Source: a virus (taxonomy: Duplodnaviria; Heunggongvirae; Uroviricota; Caudoviricetes). Taken from it: DNA of 64,000 bases. The notes under the pieces were generated by a model, which had not been told where the DNA came from, searched no databases, and was given only the letters and a program-made list of their open reading frames with translations. The stretch's first letter is position 1. Every line of letters starts with the position of its first letter. The stretch lies in the IMG/VR virus record IMGVR_UViG_2579778606_000002, positions 27,981 through 91,980 of that record. One strand, written 5' to 3'. Shown here one piece after another: positions 1,065-55,117 of the stretch. The position numbers and the translations under genes are program-made.

Positions 1065-1756
1065 CCGATCACCTGGAATTGTCCCATCCTTGGGTGATAC
1101 CAGCGTTTTCCTCGGTGTTCAGCCTCCGACATCATCAGGGTAAAGGCATTCATGAAGGGAGATAAGGCCACAATAGTACGACGCGACAATACCCCCTCTG
1201 GCGTCAAAAACTCATGCGTATCTGTGGGAATCCGGTAAGCGTTGACCAGGTTACGGCATTTGGCTTCAGTCAGGCCACATTTCGCCGCTAACTGGCGATA
1301 GCCAATGTAACCTTCTGGCATGTTGCCCTTCTTGATCTGCTCGACGGTTTCAGCAACCTGGCTAACCTTTGACTCAACAACATGAAGCCGCTTTTGCTGC
1401 TGAACTGCATTTGCAGCCATTGCAGCGATCATCTCTATTTCGGTCAACGGCTGGCGTACTTGTTCTTCCAGTTCGCGCCAGCGGTCCACCAGCCGGGCGG
1501 TGAATTCGGGAGAGAGCTGCGCAACGACGATAATGCTATCGCGCTTGCCTTGCTCGCCTTCGAAGACGTAAGCCTCAACACTACGTCGTAGTCCTAAGTT
1601 ATTGATTTTTTCGAAAACCTCAATTTGAGGACGAACAATAACGCCACCTTTGTCTAATGTCTCAATAGTGCGTTTCACATTGTCATGACGTTTTCCCACC
1701 AGCTCCGCGATCTCAATGCTGGTCATTGATGGCTTTTCGAGAATGCAGATATCCAT
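1049..1756 (-). CDS. Rha-family phage regulatory protein (antirepressor-like), truncated relative to paralog
   Basis: N-terminus MTSIEIAELVGKRHDNVKRTIE and block FEGEQGKRDSIIVVAQLSPEFTARLVDRWRELE typical of Phage_pRha; paralog at 53648..54589. Confidence 0.65.
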   Translation of the reverse strand: MDICILEKPSMTSIEIAELVGKRHDNVKRTIETLDKGGVIVRPQIEVFEKINNLGLRRSVEAYVFEGEQGKRDSIIVVAQLSPEFTARLVDRWRELEEQVRQPLTEIEMIAAMAANAVQQQKRLHVVESKVSQVAETVEQIKKGNMPEGYIGYRQLAAKCGLTEAKCRNLVNAYRIPTDTHEFLTPEGVLSRRTIVALSPFMNAFTLMMSEAEHRGKRWYHPRMGQFQVIGWGGE

Positions 1757-1980
1757 CAGTGAGACTCCGCAATGCCGGGATTGGTAATATTGCGATACCA
1801 GGGATTGGTGTTTGGTTGTGGGGAAGTAGAGAAACGACCAGTGAGAACGCCATACTGATCAGGGATCAGAGAACGGGCTTCTTTTTCAGTTGCGGCAATT
1901 GCGAAGTGATCGCAGTGTTTTTGCAGGGAGTGAAAACGCCAGATGAATTCTGGACGTGAGCAAGGATTGGCATTAACCAT
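1756..1980 (-). CDS. icd: Icd-like small protein (host cell division inhibitor-like) preceding Rha gene
   Basis: 74-aa ORF, stop/start overlap with downstream Rha gene; motif EFIWRF..EKEARS shared with paralog 54589..54804; arrangement as P1 immI. Confidence 0.45.
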   Translation of the reverse strand: MVNANPCSRPEFIWRFHSLQKHCDHFAIAATEKEARSLIPDQYGVLTGRFSTSPQPNTNPWYRNITNPGIAESH

Positions 1981-3562: not shown

Positions 3563-4557
3563 ATCCTCTTAGACACAAAGATCAGCGGAGTCACCGTCTT
3601 GTTCTCTTTCACCGGTATTTCTTGTTGTTTATTGGCTGATATTGGCAGACCATAAGTGGCATTAGCCCCCAGGGATTCAAGCATCGCTGCGACAATGCGT
3701 GCATCATCCTCTGACTGCATACGGCAGAGCGCCCGGCGCTGTTCTGCGCTGATAAAAACAGGCATTTCCTGGATAGCATCACGCAAAATACGGCGGCATT
3801 TCTTCGCGTTCTCCCCCTGGCTTTCCATCATCGCGGCCTGGTCGCGTAGTTTGTCGCGAAGCTGCATATTTTCCACTTCAAGATGTATCAGTTCCGACTC
3901 CAGAACTTCACGTTGTGCTGATTCGAATATGGCTTGCTGACTCTTCATTGCTGAAAAGTGGTGAACCAGATCCGTAGCAGCATTATCGGTAAAACCTTGT
4001 TCGATAAGTGCCGCATGAATCGCCGCGTCGCGTTCTTCTGCTGATTCAAGCATCAGGCTTTTCTTGTCGAGGCTGATATAGTTAGGCACAGTTACGTAAT
4101 CAAAACCGTGAAAAGACTTTACCAGGGATACAGAGTAATCTGGACCAGATGTAGCCCATGACCAACCACCTGCGCCAGAATTAATCATACCCTGAACAAT
4201 ACGTCCGGTGTCCGTATCCAGTATTTCCTGTGTATGGGTAACAATGCCGTTGTCGTCAATTGAAATGTCGATAGTCCTGTTTGACGGCACGTTCTCCAAT
4301 ACAACAGGCTTCCCATCTACCATCACAACAGAGACTTCCGGCAAGTCCAGGCTTTTCGTTTTGTTATAGTGCATCGCCCGGCGACCATGACCGTAATAAC
4401 CATACATCTCACCCAGTGCGATACGCTCTTTTGTTTCTGGCGAGTTGAATGTGTCTCGTACCGACTGGATAACGTAATTGCGATTGTTCTGAGGTGTGTG
4501 TTTGCGGATTTTCTCTACCAGGGAGAAGCGATCCGTAACGGTATTCAGTGATTGCAT
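3559..4557 (-). CDS. Putative head processing/scaffold protein (position of P1 pro)
   Basis: 332-aa ORF directly downstream of portal-like gene; coiled-coil-rich C-terminal half; function by position only. Confidence 0.3.
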   Translation of the reverse strand: MQSLNTVTDRFSLVEKIRKHTPQNNRNYVIQSVRDTFNSPETKERIALGEMYGYYGHGRRAMHYNKTKSLDLPEVSVVMVDGKPVVLENVPSNRTIDISIDDNGIVTHTQEILDTDTGRIVQGMINSGAGGWSWATSGPDYSVSLVKSFHGFDYVTVPNYISLDKKSLMLESAEERDAAIHAALIEQGFTDNAATDLVHHFSAMKSQQAIFESAQREVLESELIHLEVENMQLRDKLRDQAAMMESQGENAKKCRRILRDAIQEMPVFISAEQRRALCRMQSEDDARIVAAMLESLGANATYGLPISANKQQEIPVKENKTVTPLIFVSKRM

Positions 4558-27601: not shown

Positions 27602-28486
27602 ATGGTAGATGACAAAAAAGGCTTTCTGAATGTTGAGGAAATATCAGGGAATACCGGAGAAATCCACAGCTTAAAGCCTAACAATAATAGTACTATTCAG
27701 CCGATAGCTTTGTTGCGGCTTGGGGTGTTTGTTCCCACATTGAAATCTACCAGTGTTGCTTTACGTCGCAAGAACGCCGGTTTAACTAACTCCACTGATG
27801 CGACAGAAGAGCTGTCCAGCCTGAAGATTGTAGAGCAGGAAGGGTATCAGGGTATTGAGATTCATGGTCCACGCCTGGATATGGATACTGATTTTAAGGT
27901 GTGGATAGGCATTACATCTGCATTGTTTGACTATAAACCAGATAATGATGGTGTGATCACCCTGACATTCTCTGAATTTGTGGATCGTTGCGGTTATCCA
28001 AGGAAGCGGCTGTCCAAGGCTTTTCGCAAGAGCATTGGCGACTCTCTAACGCGTATTCAGCAGACGTTGCTGAAGTTCAACTTGCCCACCAGCAAAGAAC
28101 ATGTTCGTTATATCCAGATGAATTTATTGGCATTTAGTGAACTTGATACTGAAAATGACATTATAAGAATCCAACCGCAGAAGCAGTTGTCTGAGTTGTA
28201 CTACGTTGACTATAAGCGAATATTGAAGCTCAAAATGCTCGATAAACTTGGCAGGAAAGAGACAGCCAAGGTGCTTTATACGTTTTTCGAAGCGTTACCT
28301 TCAAACCCTGCGCCAGTGAGTATTGAGCGCCTTCGTGCCAGATTGAACCTCAAGTCCTCGGTTAGCGTTCAGAACAGTGTGATTCGTAAAGCCATGAAAG
28401 ACTTAGAAGCTGTTGAATATCTTAAATTTTCAGAGATAAAGAATGGTCGGAAAATAGGTTTCCAGATCCATAAACGAAATCCATAA
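27602..28486 (+). CDS. repA: Plasmid replication initiator RepA (P1 RepA-like)
   Basis: 294-aa ORF with AAGGA RBS; segments QPIALLRLGVFVP and FFEALPSNPAPVSIERLRARL recall P1 RepA; iterons on both sides. Confidence 0.8.
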   Translation: MVDDKKGFLNVEEISGNTGEIHSLKPNNNSTIQPIALLRLGVFVPTLKSTSVALRRKNAGLTNSTDATEELSSLKIVEQEGYQGIEIHGPRLDMDTDFKVWIGITSALFDYKPDNDGVITLTFSEFVDRCGYPRKRLSKAFRKSIGDSLTRIQQTLLKFNLPTSKEHVRYIQMNLLAFSELDTENDIIRIQPQKQLSELYYVDYKRILKLKMLDKLGRKETAKVLYTFFEALPSNPAPVSIERLRARLNLKSSVSVQNSVIRKAMKDLEAVEYLKFSEIKNGRKIGFQIHKRNP

Positions 28487-40749: not shown

Positions 40750-41391
40750 ATGATTATATTGGTAGTCAGCCAAAAAGGTGGCTGTGGAAAATCAACCACA
40801 AGCGTAAACATCTGTGCGGAGCTTGCCCGCGAAAATAAGGATGTAGTGTTACTAGATGCAGACAAGCAAGGAACAGCTGCCCGCTGGGCAGCTGACCGTA
40901 ACACGGCAGAGGTTTCTCCTGTAATTCATTGTGTCCAGAAGTTTGGTAATATTCGAGAAACACTTCTCGATCTGGATAAGCGTTATGAATTTGTAGTTGT
41001 TGATACAGCCGGGCGCGATAGCAAAGAGATGCGTACAGGCATAACCGCTGCAGATATTGTGTTAGTCCCATTCAGACCATCTCAACCAGATTTAGACACG
41101 CTGGCACACTTTGTTGAAGTGTTTGAAGAGGCTTTGGACCTGATGCCTAATCCTAGCATTAAGGCGTTCGCAGTCTTAACAATGGCCCCATCCAATCCGG
41201 TTGTGAATGAAACCAATGAGGCCAAAGAGTACCTGGCTGAATATCCGCAACTGAAGTTGCTGAAAACCATCATTCGTGATCGTAAGGTTTACCGCGATTG
41301 CATGGCTGAAGGGAAGGGCGTTGTTGAGATGGACAACGGGAAAGCTAAAGGTGAAATCCAGATGTTGGTTAAGGAGTTATTAAGTGATTAA
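40750..41391 (+). CDS. parA: ParA-family partition ATPase (small type Ib, ParF-like)
   Basis: Deviant Walker A box VVSQKGGCGKST near N-terminus; 213 aa. Confidence 0.8.
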   Translation: MIILVVSQKGGCGKSTTSVNICAELARENKDVVLLDADKQGTAARWAADRNTAEVSPVIHCVQKFGNIRETLLDLDKRYEFVVVDTAGRDSKEMRTGITAADIVLVPFRPSQPDLDTLAHFVEVFEEALDLMPNPSIKAFAVLTMAPSNPVVNETNEAKEYLAEYPQLKLLKTIIRDRKVYRDCMAEGKGVVEMDNGKAKGEIQMLVKELLSD

Positions 41392-41806: not shown

Positions 41807-42841
41807 TTAATTAAGCGTGGCTATAATGTCGTTAGCTATCATTCGCGTTGATGCTTTACAGGATACAGAGCGACGGGATGGCATAGGATACACCTTGAAG
41901 CCATTGCCAACGTAAAGTTCGCGAATGTTAGGCGCACCACTGTTTGTTATCACAATTTTCGCTCCGCGTCTGTGGGCATCCACCAGCAGTGACACCAGCC
42001 GTTGTTGATCTTCAAACCTAAAGCTATGCCCTGAGTAATTTGTAAATCCGGTAGTGTCGGGCAATGGTTCATAGGGGGGATCGCAGAAAATCACATCATC
42101 ATTCCCGGCAGCCTCAATTACTCCAGCAAAATCGCCGGACACAAATTCCGAATACTTTGAAATATCGTCAGCCAGGAACGCCTCCATTTCCGCGAGAGGG
42201 AAGTGGGGTGATTTCTGCTTTCCATATCCGACGTTGAACTCTCCTTTACGGTTATAGCGAGTGACGCCATTAAAACAATGACGATTGAGATACAGGAACG
42301 CCGCTGCATGGTGAAGGGAATCATAAGCACCATTGTTGAATGCATTGCGAACATTCAAAAATGCATCAGCAGAGTTGTAATCCTGAAAAAAACGATATGC
42401 CAGTGTGATAAGAGAATGCCCTTCACGCTGCAATGTCTGATAGAAGTTAATCAGGTCATTATTGATATCGTTCAGCAGGTTGCTTTTAAATCCGGCATTA
42501 GTGAAAACAGCGCCACCTCCAACGAAAGGTTCTATCAACCGTTTTCCGTGGGGCAGGTGTTCGAAGATAATGGGCAGTGCAGAAAATTTGCCGCCGACCC
42601 ACTTAAAGACTGGGCGATCAAATTCGTCCTCCGAGCGAATACGTCGCATATGGCTGATAGTGGCTTCCGCCGCAGGACGATGATTGTCGCTATAAGAAAT
42701 AAATTTAGCACCAATATCAGCCACGGATTCCCTCCTTATTTGCTTCAAATACAGCTCTTGCAAAACCGTAAGGTGTCGCGCTACGAAAATTCGCTCTTTC
42801 AGGTCCTGGCGGTGCCTTGTGTATTCGGTTGTCTGGATCAC
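41807..42841 (-). CDS. dam: Dam-like N6-adenine DNA methyltransferase (true start probably internal, near 42649)
   Basis: FKWVGGK and DPPY motifs, alignable to E. coli Dam; track start overlaps upstream ORF. Confidence 0.75.
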   Translation of the reverse strand: MIQTTEYTRHRQDLKERIFVARHLTVLQELYLKQIRRESVADIGAKFISYSDNHRPAAEATISHMRRIRSEDEFDRPVFKWVGGKFSALPIIFEHLPHGKRLIEPFVGGGAVFTNAGFKSNLLNDINNDLINFYQTLQREGHSLITLAYRFFQDYNSADAFLNVRNAFNNGAYDSLHHAAAFLYLNRHCFNGVTRYNRKGEFNVGYGKQKSPHFPLAEMEAFLADDISKYSEFVSGDFAGVIEAAGNDDVIFCDPPYEPLPDTTGFTNYSGHSFRFEDQQRLVSLLVDAHRRGAKIVITNSGAPNIRELYVGNGFKVYPMPSRRSVSCKASTRMIANDIIATLN

Positions 42842-43523
42842 CTAACGACTCGTCGATTCGCGGAGTTGGCATGATGAATCCTTGTCCGCTCCACAGGCAT
42901 GTTTTTTTGGTGTAATTGTCTTCCTTGCAATATGCAGTGAAGTGATAAGGATGGAATATGTGATCAGGTTTACGCCAGAATGTCGATATTTGGCTGACCG
43001 GGTTTTCAATCATGTACGGGCAACCAATCATCTTTGCAATGTCGTAACACTGCCAGACAACCTGCATTGCTTTGAACTGGAAAACCGGATCTTTTTTCGC
43101 TTTATCTGCGAACCAGCGTGCGCCAGATACAGCCAGGTCAGTACACGGAGGGAAACCGGCTAAAAATACAACTCTGTGCAAATTTTTCCGAAGGAAATTG
43201 TAGACCTCATCACTGTCAATAATTGCGCTGATACGTGTGAGTACAGCACCTGACTCCATCAATTGGCTGCCGGACTCCTGGTGTTGCGGATCGACAATGA
43301 CTGCATCAATGCCGTGTTCCAGCCAGGGGGAAACCATATTCCCTGTATAATCACAAAGACTCACCGCCAGCGGTCGGTTATTAATGCTCTGCTTCACCGC
43401 CAATGGCCTCCACCAGCGAGCTAAACATCGCGGATAATTCGCTTGTGAACAGAATGAAGTCAGCATCAAATCGCTGGGCAACATCTTCACGGTCGATGTC
43501 ATCGTTCTGGTCATAGAGATCAT
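42717..43523 (-). CDS. Divergent C5-cytosine methyltransferase-like protein (start uncertain)
   Basis: GFPPC (motif IV-like), MIENPV (ENV motif) and a C-terminal motif-X-like segment; overlaps rdgC and dam ORFs. Confidence 0.45.
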   Translation of the reverse strand: MISMTRTMTSTVKMLPSDLMLTSFCSQANYPRCLARWWRPLAVKQSINNRPLAVSLCDYTGNMVSPWLEHGIDAVIVDPQHQESGSQLMESGAVLTRISAIIDSDEVYNFLRKNLHRVVFLAGFPPCTDLAVSGARWFADKAKKDPVFQFKAMQVVWQCYDIAKMIGCPYMIENPVSQISTFWRKPDHIFHPYHFTAYCKEDNYTKKTCLWSGQGFIMPTPRIDESLGDPDNRIHKAPPGPERANFRSATPYGFARAVFEANKEGIRG

Positions 43524-44286
43524 CGCAAAACGTCAGTGCTTTGATGCTCATGTCATCGTTTAACCTGAAGGTCGCGCGGTCCTGCCAGTTGATTGCAACT
43601 GTTGTTGCAACTTTTCCGGCTTCAATATGAGTCATTATTTCCTCTGACTGTAGGTCTACTTTCTTGCAACGAACTGCGCCGCCGTCATCGAACAGAGATT
43701 TCAATATGGCTTCTTCGCCTGCTTTAAAGCCTTGAGGAAATGTTGACTTGAACCATTCGGTCATAGTCATTTCGAGCGGTTCTATCGGCGTGAATGGAAT
43801 CACTGGCAGGCTGCCAAGTGATTTACGTAAGAGCGCCAGCATTTCTTCTGCTTTTCTGGCGCTGGAAGCTTCTACGAAGACCAGATAGTTGTCGCGATCA
43901 ATAAGGATTCGCGACAATGATTTGCGAGTGAATGCGCGAGGCAACAAAGAGTGGAGAACTTCATCCTTCAGGGTGTTTTTTTCCGACTTCTTCAGCTTAC
44001 GAGATTGCTCATTTTCGAGCTTTTCCACTTTTTTCTGCACTTCCTCCTTAATGACATGAGAGGGCAGGAGCTTAATTTCTCGCTGTTGCTGGAGAAGTAG
44101 AAAACCGTGGTATTCATGGATCAGGTTGTCAGCCAGAACCGGCACCCATCCGACTTTTGCCATTTCTTGTGATGCGCATGGAGTGAATGTGAATTGGCTT
44201 AAGGCATCACTAACGGTGGTTGAGTCCAGTTTTATTTCGCGGGCAAGGCGATAGACGTATATGTTTTTAAAGGCGACTAATCTCAT
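43381..44286 (-). CDS. rdgC: RdgC homolog (recombination-associated protein; P1 hrdC-like)
   Basis: Alignable to E. coli RdgC along its length (LRKSLGSLPV, HIEAGKV, FCDDLYDQNDDIDREDVAQRFDADFIL); ATG at 44286. Confidence 0.8.
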   Translation of the reverse strand: MRLVAFKNIYVYRLAREIKLDSTTVSDALSQFTFTPCASQEMAKVGWVPVLADNLIHEYHGFLLLQQQREIKLLPSHVIKEEVQKKVEKLENEQSRKLKKSEKNTLKDEVLHSLLPRAFTRKSLSRILIDRDNYLVFVEASSARKAEEMLALLRKSLGSLPVIPFTPIEPLEMTMTEWFKSTFPQGFKAGEEAILKSLFDDGGAVRCKKVDLQSEEIMTHIEAGKVATTVAINWQDRATFRLNDDMSIKALTFCDDLYDQNDDIDREDVAQRFDADFILFTSELSAMFSSLVEAIGGEAEH

Positions 44287-44299
44287 TTTTAGCAAAACT

Positions 44300-44331
44300 A
44301 TGTTAGAAAACAAAACTCAATTATCTAACAC
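44300..44331. promoter_or_regulatory. 32-bp operator-like palindrome (ATGTTAGAAAAC..TATCTAACAC)
   Basis: Same inverted-repeat family, about 14 nt upstream of the rdgC start. Confidence 0.5.
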
Positions 44332-44345
44332 AGTTTTGCATTTTG

Positions 44346-45023
44346 CTATCCCTTCACAAAGGAGAAATTGCTCGCTGTTGCTTTTAGCGCGCCACCAGCT
44401 TTCAGGGCTATATCACCATCAGCTGCGACGGTTACATTGCTGCCTTTTACATTAACGTCTCCATCAGAGGATACATTGGTTTTGCTGCTTGATTTGACGT
44501 TAACCTCACCTCCAGCATTAAGCACTATATTCGCCGGGCCGATTATGTAAATCTGGCCGGATTCGTTCATCCCTATCCTTGATCCTGCGGCGGTGTTTGC
44601 TATTTCATAGCCACCGCCAGCCGTTCTTACCTCAAGGATATTGTTTCGGTGAATAACAAAATCTTCAGTCGCCGAAAACTGGGGGCGGGCAGGAGCACCA
44701 TCAACTTCTTCTGGCGACCATCCACTTCCTTGTCCGGAGGCTTCCGGAGGCACATTTGGTACGCCTCCTGGGGCATCCTGCGCCGCGCCAACGATTAAAG
44801 GTCGGCGCGTGTCTATCCTGCCTTTAGCATCCAGATAAGGAAATTCGACCCAGACTAAATCGCCGCTGACTGTAGGTGTAAAGGCGTTACCGATAGGCAT
44901 TTGATACTCTGCCCATGGGAGGTCTTCATCCGGTACACCGTCCCAGTCAGGCAGTATGCGGACCTGCGCTCGCATAAGTCCGGCAGGGTGTTTGGTCCCT
45001 ACGATTTGCGCTCTGCGTTTCAC
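44346..45023 (-). CDS. Putative baseplate central spike (gpV-like)
   Basis: 225-aa ORF; C-terminal beta-helix-like repeats (NIVLNAGGEVNVKSSSKTNVSSDGDVNVKGSNVTVAADGDIALKAGG). Confidence 0.4.
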   Translation of the reverse strand: MKRRAQIVGTKHPAGLMRAQVRILPDWDGVPDEDLPWAEYQMPIGNAFTPTVSGDLVWVEFPYLDAKGRIDTRRPLIVGAAQDAPGGVPNVPPEASGQGSGWSPEEVDGAPARPQFSATEDFVIHRNNILEVRTAGGGYEIANTAAGSRIGMNESGQIYIIGPANIVLNAGGEVNVKSSSKTNVSSDGDVNVKGSNVTVAADGDIALKAGGALKATASNFSFVKG

Positions 45024-46000
45024 TGGTTGGGTACTCCTAATATCATTCGTGTTGTATAGCCGATCCGGTCTTCAAAATGGGCTACGTTTTTCACCAGCAG
45101 CTTACGAGGCAACGATTCGTCCAGCTTATTTTCCTGGTCGTAACGATACACGAGGATCTCAATAACCATTCCCGGCGTGATGTCGGGATTACCCGCGACC
45201 TCAATATCCATTTTGGGTACGAGCGACAATTGCATATTGCGCAGAGTTTCCATATCCGGATCGGATATATAGCATATTGGAAGTGAGCTATCGCCATATT
45301 CGACATAGCCTTCAGTCATTGAATAGCCGGTAAATCGATACTGAGTATTTGCCGTAACGGCATACTCTTGCTGTATAAGCCTCATTTTTGAAATCGTGTA
45401 TTCCGCCCTGGGGTTGTTCCCTTCATAGGTGAATGATGGTTTGGCTTTCATAAGGTCAGCTAATGTATAAAAGTTAAACTGACCACGGCAGGCCCAGCAT
45501 AAAGCGCCTTTGTCGCGGGCCATTTCAGATAGCATTTTGGAGGGTTTTTCCCCGGCGGAAAGATGGTACGTACAGCTTCGTTTCAATGCGCTGGAGGCGA
45601 TTTTCAGTGTACCGGTATACGTCTTGAAAATGGTATCAGGCGTTTTATTTGTATGCAGGTTAGCCCGTATAGCGGGGATCTTAAATATCCGAACGTCTTC
45701 ACTGACTGCAATGACCGTGATGACATCACCAGCCAGCACCGCAGATGTTACGAAAAAAGTTGTTTTAAACGTGCCTGAATTGCCTTGTGGATCTCCCATC
45801 TCTGCAACCAGTGCTGCGCCGTATTTTGTTTTCCAGTCATCAATTATGGTGCCGGTAATGTCGTGAATTTCCAGTTTCAGCAATGGTGCACGCAGGTTTG
45901 CCTTTTCCACATATACGGCAGTGAATATCCACTCCCTGGGTACTTTGTTTCCGTTGATGGTAACGGACTGTAGAAAGTATTGCTGTAGCTCCTGGGACAT
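45020..46000 (-). CDS. Hypothetical baseplate/tail protein
   Basis: 326-aa ORF, 4-nt overlap with the spike gene. Confidence 0.4.
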   Translation of the reverse strand: MSQELQQYFLQSVTINGNKVPREWIFTAVYVEKANLRAPLLKLEIHDITGTIIDDWKTKYGAALVAEMGDPQGNSGTFKTTFFVTSAVLAGDVITVIAVSEDVRIFKIPAIRANLHTNKTPDTIFKTYTGTLKIASSALKRSCTYHLSAGEKPSKMLSEMARDKGALCWACRGQFNFYTLADLMKAKPSFTYEGNNPRAEYTISKMRLIQQEYAVTANTQYRFTGYSMTEGYVEYGDSSLPICYISDPDMETLRNMQLSLVPKMDIEVAGNPDITPGMVIEILVYRYDQENKLDESLPRKLLVKNVAHFEDRIGYTTRMILGVPNQ

Positions 46001-46003
46001 GGC

Positions 46004-46771
46004 TTACCCCATTCTCAGAGAGGTTTCAGTAATAATTCGTTTCGCGTCCAGCTCCCAGGCGGTGATCACGTCTGCTATAACACTAATTGCCGTTTGTGCA
46101 GCATAAATACGCTCTTCCCCAATTGGGGCTGAAACATCAGCAAAACTGATGTCTTTAGCATCCTGAATCGCGCAAATTAGCGGGACGGGTACTCGTACCA
46201 GCGGGGTTGTTGCTTCAAACTGCGTTCCTGCCATCAAGCGAAGACGTGCTCCTAGCGAATTACACATCAGACTCATGGTCGCCTTATCCGTCGCCATTAA
46301 TGTAACGTCATACGTCAGATTTGCCTGGGTGTATTCCAGGGCTACTAAAGGCATACCGCTGCCAGGTTCGCAGAAGTGATCACAGCTTTTGCGGTCTATC
46401 TGCTGGTCATTGTTGATATAGCTGATATCCATTGAGCGCGAGATATTAATCAGAGGGAGTGCATCGCGATTAATGTTCGGATTCTCTGGCTTTCTCCCTT
46501 GCCCGGCATTAGCACGGCGAACCGCTTTAAGGAACTCGACCGCGTTATCAAAACGGGCAACATAAACACGCTCCGCTGGTGGGCGACTCAGGAATGATGC
46601 AAAGCGCCTTTCTTCTTTTGCTGGTTCCACCAGCGTTACGTCAGAAAAAATGTCACTGATTAGCGTAGCAAAAGCGTTATCCACTCTTTCCAGACCAGTT
46701 GTCTGGAATTTTCCAGTACGCGTTGTCTGCCACTCGCCAATGCGGGACAGGAGAGTTTTGTTGGGTGTCAT
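46004..46771 (-). CDS. Hypothetical tail-associated protein
   Basis: 255-aa ORF in the same operon. Confidence 0.4.
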   Translation of the reverse strand: MTPNKTLLSRIGEWQTTRTGKFQTTGLERVDNAFATLISDIFSDVTLVEPAKEERRFASFLSRPPAERVYVARFDNAVEFLKAVRRANAGQGRKPENPNINRDALPLINISRSMDISYINNDQQIDRKSCDHFCEPGSGMPLVALEYTQANLTYDVTLMATDKATMSLMCNSLGARLRLMAGTQFEATTPLVRVPVPLICAIQDAKDISFADVSAPIGEERIYAAQTAISVIADVITAWELDAKRIITETSLRMG

Positions 46772-47571
46772 TCGATCACTCCGTTTTGAGTGGTATCAAA
46801 GTTCCTGGCCGGGATGCAGTAATAAAGGGAGCCGACGTGTTGTGTTCCGTAGCTGAAGATTCGATGCACGTACCACCAGCGGCGGGCGAGGCTATTCGCC
46901 ATTTCTTCGTTCCATTCCAGGATTGAACCAACAGGTACGTTGTTTGCAGCAATACGCAGGATTAGCACTTCATCAGCAAGACCATCCTGTTCTCCATCGG
47001 CATCAATGGCATGAAACGAATCCCTTCCGTCCGGGTTATCCAGGACGTATACGATTTCCGGTTCCAGATAGGTAAGCTCACGCTGGTTGTTGTCCAGTTG
47101 CGTGAAAGACTCTTCACCTGTTTCATCGTTTACGACGCCATAGGTGCCATCAGCCGGGCGGTATAAAAGCGCCTCGAACGCGTCAGGGCTTGATTCAATA
47201 ATGAGCATCCAATCGGCGCGGATCTGGTCGTTGAACGCTTTATGTCCGTTATATCGGGTTTTAAGCTGCTGGTTTGGTTCTCTGTTAGCGAGCGATGCCG
47301 GTAGGGGAGCGATGTCAGGTTCAATCACTTCCGTAACAGAGTCACCAGCATTATCAGGCCAATTATCATGGCTATTAGATTGGGTGGCGGCGTGCTCTTC
47401 CAGAATACTGAATGGCCCTGCACTGACATTCCCATTTTCCGTTGTGCTTCCTTCATTCGCTTCAACCGTCGTTGTCTCTTCTCTCTGCGTGCTGTCATGT
47501 TCTGTTCCCTTTCTCATCAGGCTTGCATCATCAGCAACCCATTCATCAAAACGGCCCATAAGCGTCCTCAA
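46768..47571 (-). CDS. Hypothetical acidic protein
   Basis: 267-aa ORF, acidic N-terminal half. Confidence 0.4.
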   Translation of the reverse strand: MRTLMGRFDEWVADDASLMRKGTEHDSTQREETTTVEANEGSTTENGNVSAGPFSILEEHAATQSNSHDNWPDNAGDSVTEVIEPDIAPLPASLANREPNQQLKTRYNGHKAFNDQIRADWMLIIESSPDAFEALLYRPADGTYGVVNDETGEESFTQLDNNQRELTYLEPEIVYVLDNPDGRDSFHAIDADGEQDGLADEVLILRIAANNVPVGSILEWNEEMANSLARRWWYVHRIFSYGTQHVGSLYYCIPARNFDTTQNGVIE

Positions 47572-47710
47572 AGGTCGATTTATCAGGTATCGAAAGGAAG
47601 ATTTTCGGGAGATTGTGATTTGTTTGCTGACAGGAGATTTATGTAGATTGGGGAGGCGAAAACTATCAGAGGTGCGGTATCATTGCTCGGTTGAAATTTA
47701 AGGAGAGACA

Positions 47711-48250
47711 GTGAGTCAGGAAGTTGAAAAGTGGCGAGCATTTGAACACCCTGATGGTGTTATTCGTGATTTGTCATTTCTTGATGCTCATCAGGCTGTG
47801 TTTGTTCAGCAACAAGAAGGAAAGCAACCGATAGAGTATCGCTTTTGGGTTACGTACTCTTTTCACTGCTTCACAAAAGACTATGCACACCAGACTGAGG
47901 AAGAGAAACTGGCGTTAATGTACCACGCCCCTAAAGAGTCTCGTCCATTTTGTGAGCGTCGCTATAATCTTGCTAAACTTCACTTAAAAGAGGCAATTCT
48001 GTCATTGTCGGAAGGTAAGGTGATCCATGCCGGATACGGAAGCTATGCCGTTATTGAGGTAAATATTGGGGAGGGTAACAAGGAATATTATTTTGTTGCG
48101 TTTAAGGCTTTCAGGGAAAAGAAAAAGTTGCGGTTACACATCACTAGCGCCTACCCGGTATCAGAAAAACCAAATGGCAGGTCAGTGAAGTTTTTCGCAA
48201 TCGCATACAATCTGTTAAGGAACAAACCGCTTCCTAAGCCACCAAAATAA
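47711..48250 (+). CDS. Hypothetical protein; solitary opposite-strand gene (accessory candidate)
   Basis: 179-aa ORF with AAGGAG RBS (GTG start) inside a minus-strand structural block; followed by a GC hairpin. Confidence 0.5.
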   Translation: MSQEVEKWRAFEHPDGVIRDLSFLDAHQAVFVQQQEGKQPIEYRFWVTYSFHCFTKDYAHQTEEEKLALMYHAPKESRPFCERRYNLAKLHLKEAILSLSEGKVIHAGYGSYAVIEVNIGEGNKEYYFVAFKAFREKKKLRLHITSAYPVSEKPNGRSVKFFAIAYNLLRNKPLPKPPK

Positions 48251-48253
48251 CAA

Positions 48254-48273
48254 AGCCCACCTTAAGGTGGGCT
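48254..48273. terminator. Terminator-like hairpin (AGCCCACC-ttaa-GGTGGGCT)
   Basis: Perfect 8-bp stem 4 nt after the stop at 48250; U-rich flank stronger on the minus strand. Confidence 0.45.
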
Positions 48274-48475
48274 TCGCCAGAAATTATTTTCTGGTATTCA
48301 GAACGCCATTACCGGACTTTGCCTTGACCAAGTATCACAACTGGTTTGACCTGTTATGATAGCTGGTTGCGGGATGTCTGAATTTCTTCAGTCTGCTGCA
48401 TCCTCGAAGGTTTGGTTCAACATGTACCATTCCTTCACTGTCATAATAGTGTACTATTCATGTCCTTGCAAACAC

Positions 48476-49681
48476 TTATACATTTTTTACGTTGTTCTTC
48501 ACATACGCCATGAACATCTTTTCGGCTTGTGCTGGTGGTGTTCCTGCCATAACAAGCGCATCAATGAACGCCTGCTTCTTCAGTGCGAACTGATCAGCAA
48601 GGCGTTGCTGAAGTTCCTTGTTTTTCTGCTTCTCCCGTTGCAAAGCAGCTTCTTTTGCCGCTGCCCGTTTTTTCTGTGCGTCGGATAACTTTCTGGCCCT
48701 GGTCAGTTGGTCACGCAGCTTGTCGATCTTACCGTTGTCCTTTGCCAGTTTTGAGCTTAAAGCGGCCTGGCGTTTCTGATAGAGCTTCCATTCACGTTTA
48801 GCTGCCTCAACATTCGTTTTGCTGCTACGGTTTCGATTGAACGCCTTCTCGTCTTCTTTTGTGAAGTGTTTTGTCGAGCGGCGGCGATCGTCACCAAAGG
48901 CAACTTGCGTTGCAGCTTTTTGCAGGGCGCGAGCAATACTCATCTGCCAACTGGCAGACTGTAGTCGTGTCATTGAGTGGATCACATGTTTACAGGCGAC
49001 GCCTTGCAGCTTAGGGTTGCGAACTTTTGGATAGGCGTATTCTTTTGGCGGGGCCAGGGCAAAGTTACCCGCAGTGGCGATGTAGCGATACCAGTATTGA
49101 TGGCGACCGCAGTCACAATCGAAAGACACTCGCCCGGCACACAGTGATTTTGTGACTTTCAGGGCTGATTTATCGTCTTCTGCGATGTCATCGACCATCT
49201 GATCCCATTCTTCAAAACGTACCCGGACAATGTGGTGCTGGTGAACGGATATATCGGACGCTTCCACGCGGATATTAATCACATTGTGACGAAGAGATAC
49301 GGGCGTAGCTCTTTTGATACCAGAACCGTCGTCTACGGCGTTATTTGCTCGCTTAATATCGATAGCCTGGCTGGACGCTACCAGTTGTGCGTATGTAATG
49401 CCACCCGTCTTGCTGTCGTATTTTTCGCGTGCTTTGCTTCGCAGCTTTTCGAAGCCTTTCAGATCGTCACGCGTAAAGAACGTGCCGCCTTTCTTTTTCC
49501 CCAGCTTAAGAATGTCTTCGGCTGATTTATTCCTAAGCCTGCCCGGCGTGAGTGTCCTGTGCGCCTGGCGGCGTTTGCGGTTTTGCTCTTTCCTGATGAG
49601 TTCAAATACGCGTGTGAAATCCTTAGAGGACAGGCCGTCAGTGATATATCGCCCGTCCTGATTTTTCAGGAAGTCAGGCAT
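48476..49681 (-). CDS. Hypothetical protein with CxC...CxH zinc-finger-like motif and long basic coiled-coil tail
   Basis: 401-aa ORF; FDCDCGRH...VACKHVIH; Lys/Arg/Gln-rich coiled coil at C-terminus. Confidence 0.45.
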   Translation of the reverse strand: MPDFLKNQDGRYITDGLSSKDFTRVFELIRKEQNRKRRQAHRTLTPGRLRNKSAEDILKLGKKKGGTFFTRDDLKGFEKLRSKAREKYDSKTGGITYAQLVASSQAIDIKRANNAVDDGSGIKRATPVSLRHNVINIRVEASDISVHQHHIVRVRFEEWDQMVDDIAEDDKSALKVTKSLCAGRVSFDCDCGRHQYWYRYIATAGNFALAPPKEYAYPKVRNPKLQGVACKHVIHSMTRLQSASWQMSIARALQKAATQVAFGDDRRRSTKHFTKEDEKAFNRNRSSKTNVEAAKREWKLYQKRQAALSSKLAKDNGKIDKLRDQLTRARKLSDAQKKRAAAKEAALQREKQKNKELQQRLADQFALKKQAFIDALVMAGTPPAQAEKMFMAYVKNNVKNV

Positions 49682-50003
49682 TTTCTATCTCCGGTGCCGA
49701 GCCAGCGTAATCGCGAATCTTGTTTCTTAGCCATGCTGCGTCAGGAAGAGTTAACGTTGTCCCTACCGGCATTTCTTCCATTTCTGACTCATGGCCCACC
49801 AGCACGCGAAATACCCAGCGCAAATCAGCGTTGCCATAGGCGCGATAGGCCGCCAGGTCTGAGCGATAAACCTCATCAATTTTTATCGTGTACTGGAAAT
49901 TATCGGAGTGGTACTCCGATACCCGCTTGATCATCTCCTGATGGAATAGTGCGCGCAGCACATCGTCTTCAATGCATCGATCGTCGAGCCTGCTGTAACT
50001 CAT
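49674..50003 (-). CDS. Hypothetical protein
   Basis: 109-aa ORF overlapping the downstream gene by 8 nt. Confidence 0.4.
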   Translation of the reverse strand: MSYSRLDDRCIEDDVLRALFHQEMIKRVSEYHSDNFQYTIKIDEVYRSDLAAYRAYGNADLRWVFRVLVGHESEMEEMPVGTTLTLPDAAWLRNKIRDYAGSAPEIENA

Positions 50004-53647: not shown

Positions 53648-54589
53648 TTAACTAACAATCCAGTCGGTTGCTGCTATATCTTCTGGCTGCAAATCAATCG
53701 CACAGATCTTACCGTCGCGAATGGTGCGCCAGTTTTTCCGTGAGCCTCTTTCGGGCCATACCCAGACACTTTCAGGCCAGGATGCTCGACGGCATACGGT
53801 TGCATACCCTGTTTTAATCTTCTCTCTGGCGGTATGCAACGACAGGTTTGCCTTTGGGCTATCAGGCACAGGGTGGTGAATGGCCTGAAACAGCCCCATC
53901 CTGGGGTGATACCAGCGTTTGTTGCGTGGTTCTGCCTCCGACATCACCTGCTTAAAGGCTTTCCGGAAGGGGGCCAGGGCCACAATTGAGCGTCGCGCAA
54001 GCAAACCGTCGGGAGTCAAAAACTCATGCGTATCAGTGGGTATCCGGTAAGCGTTAACCAGGTTGCGACATTTGGCTTCAGTCAGGCCACATTTCGCCGC
54101 CAGCTGGCGGTAGCCAATGTAGCCTTCCGGAATATTGCCTTTCTTTATTTGCTCGAGTGTTTCAGCGACCATCGATACTTGTGCTGATACCTCGGCTACC
54201 TGGGCATTTACGGCGTTGATCCGGCGTTCATGCTCAAGATGCATTTGCGCCATTTCAGCCAGGATTTCGGCTTTTGATTTTAACTGTACCCGGGCATTCT
54301 CCAGTTCGCGCCAGCGGTCCACCAGCCGGGCGGTGAATTCCGGAGAGAGCTGCGCGACGACAATGATGCTGTCTCGTTTTCCTTGTTCGCCTTCAAATAT
54401 GTAAGCCTTGGAAAATCGACGAGGGCCAACTGATTGTTTATTTTCAATTTCCACAGATTGTGGAAATTGGATCACACTCTTTTTAGCCAGTGTTTCGATA
54501 GTTCTCTTCACACTATCTTGGCGACTTCCTACCAGTTCCGCGATCTCAATGCTGGTCATTGTCGCTTTTTGAGAGATGGACAGATTCAT
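53648..54589 (-). CDS. Rha-family phage regulatory protein (antirepressor-like), intact paralog
   Basis: 313-aa ORF; N-terminal Phage_pRha-type segment nearly identical to copy 1. Confidence 0.7.
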   Translation of the reverse strand: MNLSISQKATMTSIEIAELVGSRQDSVKRTIETLAKKSVIQFPQSVEIENKQSVGPRRFSKAYIFEGEQGKRDSIIVVAQLSPEFTARLVDRWRELENARVQLKSKAEILAEMAQMHLEHERRINAVNAQVAEVSAQVSMVAETLEQIKKGNIPEGYIGYRQLAAKCGLTEAKCRNLVNAYRIPTDTHEFLTPDGLLARRSIVALAPFRKAFKQVMSEAEPRNKRWYHPRMGLFQAIHHPVPDSPKANLSLHTAREKIKTGYATVCRRASWPESVWVWPERGSRKNWRTIRDGKICAIDLQPEDIAATDWIVS

Positions 54590-54839: not shown

Positions 54840-55050
54840 CGCGTGAGGTTCCAATCTCAATGGCGGTAGCACTGACTGGGTTGGAACTACCGGCGCAAAA
54901 GGGAACCGGCCTGCCTTTCGGCAGCCCAGCCAGCACTACCATTGATCTCTGAGCTAAACGCTACGTATGGCTGTGCGATGGCATGACACAAGAAAAGACG
55001 CTTTCGGCGTCTGTGTCGCCTTTTGCATTATCCGGGGTTCCAATCCCGGC
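54840..55050 (-). ncRNA. Candidate c4-like antisense RNA / control region of icd-rha copy 2
   Basis: Direct boxes GGTTCCAATC at 54847 and 55036 with inverted copy GGTTGGAAC at 54879, about 45 nt upstream of icd start. Confidence 0.25.
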
Positions 55051-55117
55051 ACCCGTTTTTCTAAGGTGCCGTAGAAATATACCCCACGATAATGCCAGGG
55101 CGCAACTGTGTGTTTTC

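Follow-up and report, generated by a model that had tools for sequence, protein, structure and literature searches.

What is a plus-strand gene doing amid tail genes that all lie on the minus strand? The question is raised by a stretch of DNA from a tailed virus (Caudoviricetes), positions 27,981 to 91,980 of IMG/VR record IMGVR_UViG_2579778606_000002; the window, as used here, means that whole stretch of 64,000 nucleotides (nt). An earlier note, made from the sequence alone, described the gene as a solitary, insulated moron encoding 179 amino acids (aa), with its own ribosome-binding site (RBS) and its own hairpin, without recognisable motif, and placed where prophages typically carry defence or exclusion genes. 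Much of this holds. The open reading frame (ORF), with its GTG start, is as described, and the same coordinates are given to the coding sequence (CDS) in the RefSeq annotation of a 93.9-kb E. coli plasmid that is 99.7% identical in this region. The RBS, AAGGAG, is there, ending 5 nt before the start codon. The gene does interrupt a run of minus-strand structural genes, with homologues of P1 genes 5, 6, 24, and 7 (44346-47559) to one side and of genes 25 and 26 (48476-50003) to the other, according to the annotation of phage D6. A perfect GC hairpin does lie just past the gene. But the gene is not solitary, and the hairpin is not its own. It is practically certain that the locus consists of two convergent genes: a homologue of yjaZ (formerly htrC) and, facing it on the minus strand, the gene for the small RNA (sRNA) SroH. 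Their 3' ends meet, the minus-strand terminator of sroH abutting the yjaZ stop codon; sroH has a promoter-like site of its own and matches an Rfam family (Table 1).

The first clue to the overlooked gene came from pairwise blastn comparisons, in which the non-coding DNA past yjaZ proved better conserved than the CDS in Aeromonas, Actinobacillus, and one cyanobacterium. Rfam model RF00372 (sroH) matches the minus strand from 48437 to 48252 over its full length (1-161), scoring 113 bits where the gathering score is 80 (E = 2.4e-27), and a model of our own (R1) has a sole match in the window, at 122 bits, which is sroH. The structured, conserved core of SroH lies at 48406-48245, while 48437-48407 forms a lineage-specific 5' hairpin. 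The hairpin that the earlier note gave to the protein gene belongs to this RNA. Its 9-bp perfect stem (AAGCCCACC/GGTGGGCTT, 48253-48261 and 48266-48274, loop TTAA) begins 3 nt past the yjaZ stop and lengthens to 11 bp, and only on the minus strand does a T-run (TTTGTTATTTT) come after the stem; a terminator scan scores the hairpin on that strand alone. The same hairpin is the one structure that the Rfam sroH model annotates, at its 3' end. The U-tract of SroH (48250-48240, minus strand) includes the complement of the yjaZ stop codon. At the other end, the predicted start of sroH, about 48436, coincides with the start of the Rfam match, and the cyanobacterial copies carry TTGACA/TATAAT-like boxes in the equivalent place. 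The layout of an independent transcription unit 3' of yjaZ, with its own promoter-like site and intrinsic terminator, is predicted from sequence and is shared with the K-12-type chromosome. Although it passes the Rfam gathering score, sroH is annotated in none of the listed E. coli genome and plasmid records (H73-H84), where the entry under features is 'none'.

The protein likewise has a name. It aligns over its whole length (1-179 of 179) to the NCBIfam equivalog model NF007263, at 332.9 bits against a cutoff of 324, and all 120 of the homologues listed carry the Pfam domain PF27200, itself named YjaZ; the supposed lack of a recognisable motif thus falls away. Residues invariant in the family are retained in the window protein, among them H52, C53, R141, H143, and S146 within the YSFHCF and RLHxTSAY blocks (alignment A1). 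No match was found for the protein in PHROGs, in PADLOC, or in the copy of Pfam-A searched, which is older than PF27200. Chance is excluded by a wide margin for both genes, the covariance-model E-values being about 1e-25 and the protein E-value 5e-100. The window copy represents a distinct lineage, 93% identical to a copy on an E. fergusonii plasmid and about 75-78% identical to chromosomal copies.

Table 1. Features of the yjaZ-sroH cassette and its flanks, in window coordinates.
Feature	Position	Strand	Basis
Cargo cassette, whole	47622..48484	none	D6-like plasmids with other cargo are homologous up to 47621 and again from 48485-48495 (blastn, 47400-48700 against L001, L007, L008, L012)
Upstream region, cassette-specific	47622..47710	+	Holds RBS AAGGAG at 47700-47705; read from sequence
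yjaZ (htrC) homologue	47711..48250	+	179 aa, isoelectric point (pI) 9.3, GTG start, TAA stop
sroH small RNA gene, convergent to yjaZ	48245..48437	-	Rfam RF00372, 113 bits; own model R1, 122 bits; fold z-score; covariation
SroH terminator stem-loop (hairpin of the earlier note)	48251..48276	-	Terminator scan; helices 8 and 9 100% paired, with compensatory changes
sroH promoter-like site, TTGCAA-17 nt-TATTAT	48471-48443	-	Sequence scan, sigma-70-like
Left flank: P1 gene 7 homologue, tail protein	46768..47559	-	78% nt identity to D6 orf69, 'similar to P1 gene 7'; annotated start from L009
Right flank: P1 gene 25 homologue, tail protein	48476..49681	-	D6 orf74, 'similar to P1 gene 25'; ORF list

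Do the two genes belong together? To judge by their distribution, they do. From species-representative genomes, 80 yjaZ loci were fetched, and 85 loci entered a search by nhmmer with the window RNA as the single query. They span Enterobacterales, Aeromonas, Pseudomonas, Vibrio, Pasteurellaceae, Ferrimonas, Psychrobacter, Glaciecola/Alteromonas (Alteromonadales), and Actinobacillus, and extend to dozens of cyanobacteria (Microcoleus, Nostoc, Anabaena, Dolichospermum, Pseudanabaena, Calothrix, and others), Deinococcales, Planctomycetota, and Woeseiaceae. An SroH-like RNA, convergent with yjaZ and abutting its 3' end, was found in 84 of the 85. These distant copies score 50-80 bits with the Rfam sroH model and are not covered by any other family of Rfam. 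The joint is precise: of the 78 loci where both end motifs of the RNA could be located, 60 have its 3' end at an offset of 0, -1, or -5 nt from the stop codon's end. A reciprocal test began from the RNA. An exact RNA pattern alone retrieved 80 metagenome loci, 68 of them with enough flanking sequence, and a convergent YjaZ is encoded in 57 of the 68; several of the other 11 keep 3' remnants of yjaZ, or other genes have replaced it. Within E. coli, 3,743 of 5,426 complete genomes carry sroH and 3,740 carry yjaZ. Since the linkage runs from E. coli to cyanobacteria, yjaZ and sroH probably work as a pair.

Two observations on individual loci may be added. In four related metagenome loci (L105, L124, L163, and L177), the SroH-like RNA is intact, yjaZ is missing, and a convergent ORF of 107 aa stands in its place, about 190 nt downstream of the 5' motif of the RNA. 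By eye this ORF looks like that of a RelE/ParE-type toxin (...FKIKLRASGFRLIYKVIDDEIVIWVVAVGKRE...), which could be a replacement or a coincidence. Separately, a short unannotated ORF lies directly upstream of some yjaZ copies, for example in Actinobacillus (L005, 7498-8010, 170 aa, overlapping the start of yjaZ by 10 nt) and in Waterburya (L006, 7726-7947, 73 aa); an upstream ORF of this sort is not a conserved feature of the family.

One might suppose the two genes to be coincidental neighbors, SroH serving as an independent, trans-acting sRNA of the envelope-stress response and yjaZ being unrelated to it. Deletion of sroH in fact makes E. coli K-12 sensitive to envelope stress (PMC5389530), and SroH binds kbl mRNA in vitro (PMC6172242). 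Coincidence is nonetheless extremely improbable, for the linkage persists across phyla while the wider neighborhood is not conserved. A third conserved gene was not found across 82 loci, the largest cluster of neighbors comprising 7 of the 82, all close relatives. Moreover, the two genes are the sole joint cargo of a plasmid of 2.46 kb.

The two members of the pair are not lost with equal ease. Among the same 5,426 E. coli genomes, sroH is intact (at least 80% covered) in 3,739, yjaZ in only 3,417. The protein without an intact RNA was encountered in a single case, locus L090 from a Thiomargarita metagenome-assembled genome, which is the one exception among the 85 loci. This locus was considered as an alternative layout, with the RNA upstream on the same strand, and rejected when its sequence was read, the RNA being a 5'-truncated remnant; it is not used as evidence. 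The remnant (3752-3865, plus strand) is accompanied by a 3' remnant of yjaZ and lies upstream of a yjaZ at 4001-4519 (plus strand), an arrangement suggestive of a second cassette that was rearranged or has decayed. An orphan RNA is thus tolerated, and the protein without the RNA is nearly absent. That the RNA outlasts the protein, and not the reverse, is the asymmetry expected of an antitoxin and a toxin.

What kind of RNA is SroH? An alignment of 68 sequences, from which a structure was derived partly by RNAalifold and partly by eye, has 38 invariant and 29 nearly invariant positions. A helix P1 (GGAUG/CAUCC) is stacked on a variable hairpin, P1a. A conserved internal loop contributes CAGA to a pseudoknot, the partner being a UCUG farther away, and hairpins P2 and P3 are enclosed by a long-range helix of 4 bp in which a G is bulged. 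The remaining elements are hairpin P4 and the terminator. Across the 40 pairs in 9 helices, pseudoknot included, 98.8% of 2,716 cells hold standard pairs, as compared with 87.6% when columns are shuffled and 32-49% when the partners are slid, a percentage that is favored by the derivation of the structure from the same sequences. The real evidence lies in compensatory double changes, which are seen at 24 of the 40 pairs (292 cells). Examples are the change of GGAUG/CAUCC to GAGUG/CACUC and five different combinations of pairs in the long-range helix. None of 500 shuffles reached any of the observed measures. G-U pairs outnumber A-C mismatches by 117 to 5, and the functional strand is therefore the minus strand of the window. 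Large insertions are confined to hairpin loops. The fold of the window copy, whose P2 bears a 9-bp extension, has a z-score of -6.27.

Such conservation and complexity are those of an RNA that binds a protein or a ligand rather than those of a typical base-pairing sRNA, and so high a degree of conservation across phyla is unusual for an sRNA. Three more specific ideas were tried and given up. A small protein encoded within SroH was rejected, as no reading frame is conserved: the spacings of the invariant blocks fall in all three frames, and the longest ORF has a median of 26 aa. A hammerhead-like reading of the segment CUGAAUA-stem-CGAAG was rejected, as the core positions G8 and A15.1-U16.1 are unmet. 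And the resemblance of the invariant CAGCAG and CGGUAA(U) to the 530 loop of 16S rRNA, which had raised the idea of an A-site mimic suited to a RelE-like protein, was dropped, two ordered 6-mers not being statistically meaningful.

The degree of constraint bears on a simpler account of the linkage, in which SroH is nothing but a convergent antisense or terminator-sharing regulator of yjaZ in cis, acting by transcriptional interference or through a 3' duplex and decay by RNase III, with no contact with YjaZ. The geometry is suited to this: the U-tract of SroH overlaps the stop codon, at the few fixed offsets given above. The hairpin lacks a U-tract in the direction of yjaZ, so a transcript reading through the end of that gene would be fully complementary to SroH. 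However, complementarity is all that an antisense RNA needs, and here 38 invariant bases are kept across phyla together with a three-way junction and a pseudoknot; the overlap is merely about 6-10 nt; and the RNA stays intact where yjaZ has decayed. Nor does SroH appear to pair with the translation start of yjaZ, where cognate pairs average -22.6 in duplex energy, non-cognate pairs -21.8, and shuffled sequences -22.3; trans-antisense pairing at this site was accordingly rejected. Regulation in cis alone is unlikely to be the whole story.

A second way to account for the constraint would be to regard the core of SroH as a ligand aptamer, a riboswitch-like sensor whose terminator gates antisense transcription into yjaZ. 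The core is aptamer-like in its conservation and complexity, and the order of elements, from promoter through structured domain to terminator, is aimed into yjaZ. Yet no antiterminator pairing was seen by eye and none covaries with the arms of the terminator, which vary between taxa. SroH, besides, is not found in a 5' leader, lying instead 3' of yjaZ and antisense to it, and in the literature it figures as a separate sRNA whose 3' end is defined, the primary transcript carrying poly(A) there (PMC5389530). A sensor of this kind is very improbable.

YjaZ is a basic alpha/beta protein, and the predicted structure resembles toxins of the RelE/ParE type weakly but consistently, and does not resemble ToxN/AbiQ. 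In the model it is the C-terminal half that weakly resembles the RelE/ParE-type nuclease fold; the protein is about twice as large as RelE, with an extra N-terminal beta-hairpin region. Searches by sequence profile gave no similarity to RelE or HigB (Pfam-A and PDB profile searches). The profile search of PDB sequences with YjaZ returned only noise, the best hit being SH2B (E = 0.17), and Foldseek gave no significant match against the PDB or against BFVD viral structures.

The surroundings of the pair in the window tell how it is carried. The window is from a D6-like plasmid prophage related to P1, with the cassette, about 860 bp judging from the breakpoints of blastn homology, in a variable slot between tail genes 7 and 25. 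At the same junction, phage D6 has RelE, two HigA proteins, and orf73; other plasmids have RelE, HigA, a helix-turn-helix (HTH) protein, and a hypothetical protein, despite a gene 7 that is 99.8% identical; and others still have HigB with an HTH protein, or AlpA. A D6-like plasmid of Raoultella (L004, 8952-12139) has yjaZ-sroH in the slot, followed by umuD, umuC, and genes for an HTH protein and a protein of 305 aa; hairpin P2 of the RNA is longer there by an insert of about 100 nt. The cargo is always on the strand opposite to the tail genes. The region just upstream of yjaZ (47622-47710) is common only to the yjaZ-bearing plasmids L009 and L011, and yjaZ is present in only about 5 of the 120 matching PLSDB records. 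The presence-or-absence polymorphism that the earlier note had proposed to look for is therefore found among relatives. With variable cargo at the junction, a role in virion assembly is excluded: yjaZ-sroH is accessory cargo, not a virion gene. The moron of the earlier note survives as accessory cargo in a variable slot and does not survive as a single insulated gene with its own terminator, being a protein gene with a convergent sRNA gene.

The slot has a few further peculiarities. The terminator of SroH (48240-48279) is oriented in the same way as the late tail genes, and it should therefore halt transcripts coming from genes 26 and 25 toward gene 7. All the cargo alleles conserve some 60 nt on the upstream side of that gene (47560-47621), and there may be a separate late promoter there; a P1-type late promoter upstream of gene 7 was not recognised by eye.

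The pair moves as well between kinds of replicon. A YjaZ homologue is encoded on 557 PLSDB plasmids, 288 of them conjugative, 104 mobilizable, and 165 non-mobilizable. The ColE1-type plasmid pEc184_6 (NZ_CP072864.1, L220), a mere 2,462 bp, has only RNAI, yjaZ (1090-1632), and sroH (1627-1789, minus strand), plus one annotated ORF of 27 aa. The pair is cargo also on the mobilizable 5.8-kb plasmid pS51A (NC_015175.1, L221), and five IMG/VR contigs hold yjaZ together with the RNA. In Aeromonas a copy of yjaZ is at the edge of a P2-like prophage, and in another prophage yjaZ adjoins genes for a HipA kinase and phage gpD. On the E. coli K-12-type chromosome, yjaZ comes directly after rpoC, the locus lying between rpoC and thiH. 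The pair is one unit that moves among chromosomes, plasmids, and prophages.

Would a single defence or exclusion protein, expressed from the prophage and insulated by a terminator of its own, explain the locus as well? The polymorphic slot, with its toxin-antitoxin cargo in relatives, and the patchy, mobile distribution of the family are what such a protein would lead one to expect. The hairpin, however, belongs to sroH, the protein is practically never without the RNA, no profile of a known defence family matches it, and in 69% of E. coli genomes yjaZ is a chromosomal gene at a fixed locus. This account is quite improbable.

The best explanation as a whole, and on balance a somewhat probable one, is that yjaZ and sroH make up a self-contained two-gene cassette, carried as accessory cargo and acting as a protein-RNA module, possibly one resembling a toxin-antitoxin system. 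That the two form a functional pair is likely, because the linkage is nearly obligate, no other partner is conserved, and the pair is autonomous as plasmid cargo, and also because the fold of the RNA is far more constrained than antisense pairing needs, the protein is basic and resembles nuclease toxins, and the RNA outlives the protein. In the mechanism judged most likely, SroH would bind and restrain YjaZ or would be its dedicated RNA partner or substrate. If YjaZ were a nuclease-like toxin of the RelE/ParE type, SroH might restrain it or be processed by it. Expression would come from the prophage or plasmid in which the pair resides, and its use would lie in maintenance, survival under stress, or the exclusion of phages, not in building virions. 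A mechanism like that of toxin-antitoxin systems is the simplest model and is conceivable, though short of probable. The toxin-antitoxin modules that fill the slot in relatives, the adjacency to HipA in another prophage, and the status as sole cargo of a minimal plasmid are compatible with a possible toxin-antitoxin or defence-like role.

Several points weigh against this explanation. In K-12, a delta-yjaZ::kan allele serves as a neutral linked marker (PMC4666387), so that the deletion is viable, and a passage of PMC5389530 that cites Hobbs 2010 describes delta-sroH as viable too. With both single deletions viable, an essential antitoxin is not indicated, although the same holds for many type I systems. 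The likeness of the YjaZ model to RelE/ParE is weak. Regulation in cis alone could explain the co-occurrence. No YjaZ was found in 50,697 GenBank phage records, no family of PADLOC-DB v2 matched at E-values up to 1, and PHROGs yielded none. Finally, the scan of the window for sigma-70-like sites gave none on the plus strand that might serve as the promoter of yjaZ.

What is known of the two genes in K-12 is scattered. The model NF007263 is titled YjaZ, 'stationary phase growth adaptation protein'; the heat-shock assignment that went with the name htrC has been retracted, and the gene is counted as uncharacterised (PMC11551758). A study by gSELEX lists a minor-sigma promoter between rpoC and yjaZ (PMC5493296). 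SroH is a known sRNA of unknown function (PMC5389530). It is modestly induced by AZT (PMC11228462), and its gene has been lost from phylogroups B2 and D of E. coli (PMC3318445). The literature searched contained no paper that mentions sroH together with yjaZ or htrC.

Elsewhere in the window, the minus strand carries four other RNA elements: two loci for the C4 antisense RNA (Rfam RF01695, 76.7 and 70 bits), one c4-a1b1 target element, and one isrK-like RNA, at 54859-54946, 2028-2113, 2182-2234, and 54991-55069. With two C4 loci, the P1-type regulatory RNAs of immunity I are present twice in the element. A 313-aa ORF (53648-54589) adjoins one of the C4 loci. From reading the translations only, a ParA-like ATPase (40750-41391, plus strand), a Dam-type adenine methylase (41807-42841), a putative cytosine methylase (42717-43523), and a homologue of RdgC (43381-44313), the last three on the minus strand, were recognised; the order methylase, methylase, RdgC matches D6 orf63-65.

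What was a hypothetical moron becomes a named cassette, and its anatomy is corrected, the hairpin being the terminator of an sRNA. The locus adds a member borne by a plasmid prophage to two known, uncharacterised families, yjaZ and sroH. Both are parts of E. coli K-12 listed as having no known function, and their pairing provides a direct experimental hypothesis for two orphan genes. The deep coupling of a y-gene with a structured sRNA, across phyla, was unexpected. For phage-plasmids of the P1/D6 type, the cassette is flagged as a candidate for maintenance or defence cargo. It might even represent a class not yet described, a mobile two-component module in which a protein with a RelE/ParE fold is under the control of a dedicated pseudoknotted RNA, about 130 nt long and conserved from enterobacteria to cyanobacteria, or works by means of it, as a system of the toxin-antitoxin or abortive-infection type, but this is a tentative and rather unlikely proposition. 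If it is true, the RNA partner would be unlike the repeat RNAs of type III systems and the antisense RNAs of type I systems, and an sRNA and a y-gene that both lack an assigned function would gain one.

How the pair compares with those systems can be said in some detail. With type III systems (ToxIN, CptIN, TenpIN), it shares a protein of predicted nuclease-like fold beside a dedicated structured RNA, an association with plasmids and phages, and a terminator separating the RNA from the protein gene. In type III, however, the RNA is upstream of the protein gene, on the same strand, and consists of tandem repeats, whereas the window has a single copy of the RNA, convergent with the gene and 3' of it; an array of repeats as in type III was considered and rejected, for the window RNA has no tandem repeats. 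YjaZ, moreover, resembles RelE/ParE and not ToxN/AbiQ. The type II pairs RelE/HigB-HigA, which occupy the same slot as alternative cargo, differ in that yjaZ has no adjacent ORF for a protein antitoxin: beside yjaZ, the cassette has no credible flanking ORF of at least 20 aa, and no neighbor is conserved in the 82 loci. YjaZ is also about twice the size of these toxins, has its extra N-terminal region, and shows no profile similarity to them. The nearest likeness in type I is SymE-SymR, where the gene for a soluble protein overlaps an antisense small RNA and deletion of the RNA is viable. In contrast, yjaZ and sroH overlap at the 3' end, by a few nt, and SroH is far more conserved and structured than an antisense RNA needs to be. 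YjaZ, at 179 aa and pI 9.3, is an alpha/beta protein, not a small hydrophobic peptide, and there is no cognate-specific pairing at the translation start.

As cargo, the pair has the habit of genes in the moron or cargo slots of P1 and D6, which lie between late operons on the opposite strand and vary among nearly identical elements, but few of the relatives sampled have the yjaZ-sroH allele, and none of the listed records annotates its sRNA. The closest counterpart is the yjaZ-sroH locus of E. coli K-12. There, too, the layout is convergent, and nt identity is 77% over 47698-48409, which includes the RBS, the CDS, the terminator, and the core of the RNA. The window copy differs from it in lying among the tail genes of a D6-like plasmid prophage, with a different upstream (promoter) region, and its RNA differs from the SroH of K-12 in the extension of P2 and in its 5' hairpin.

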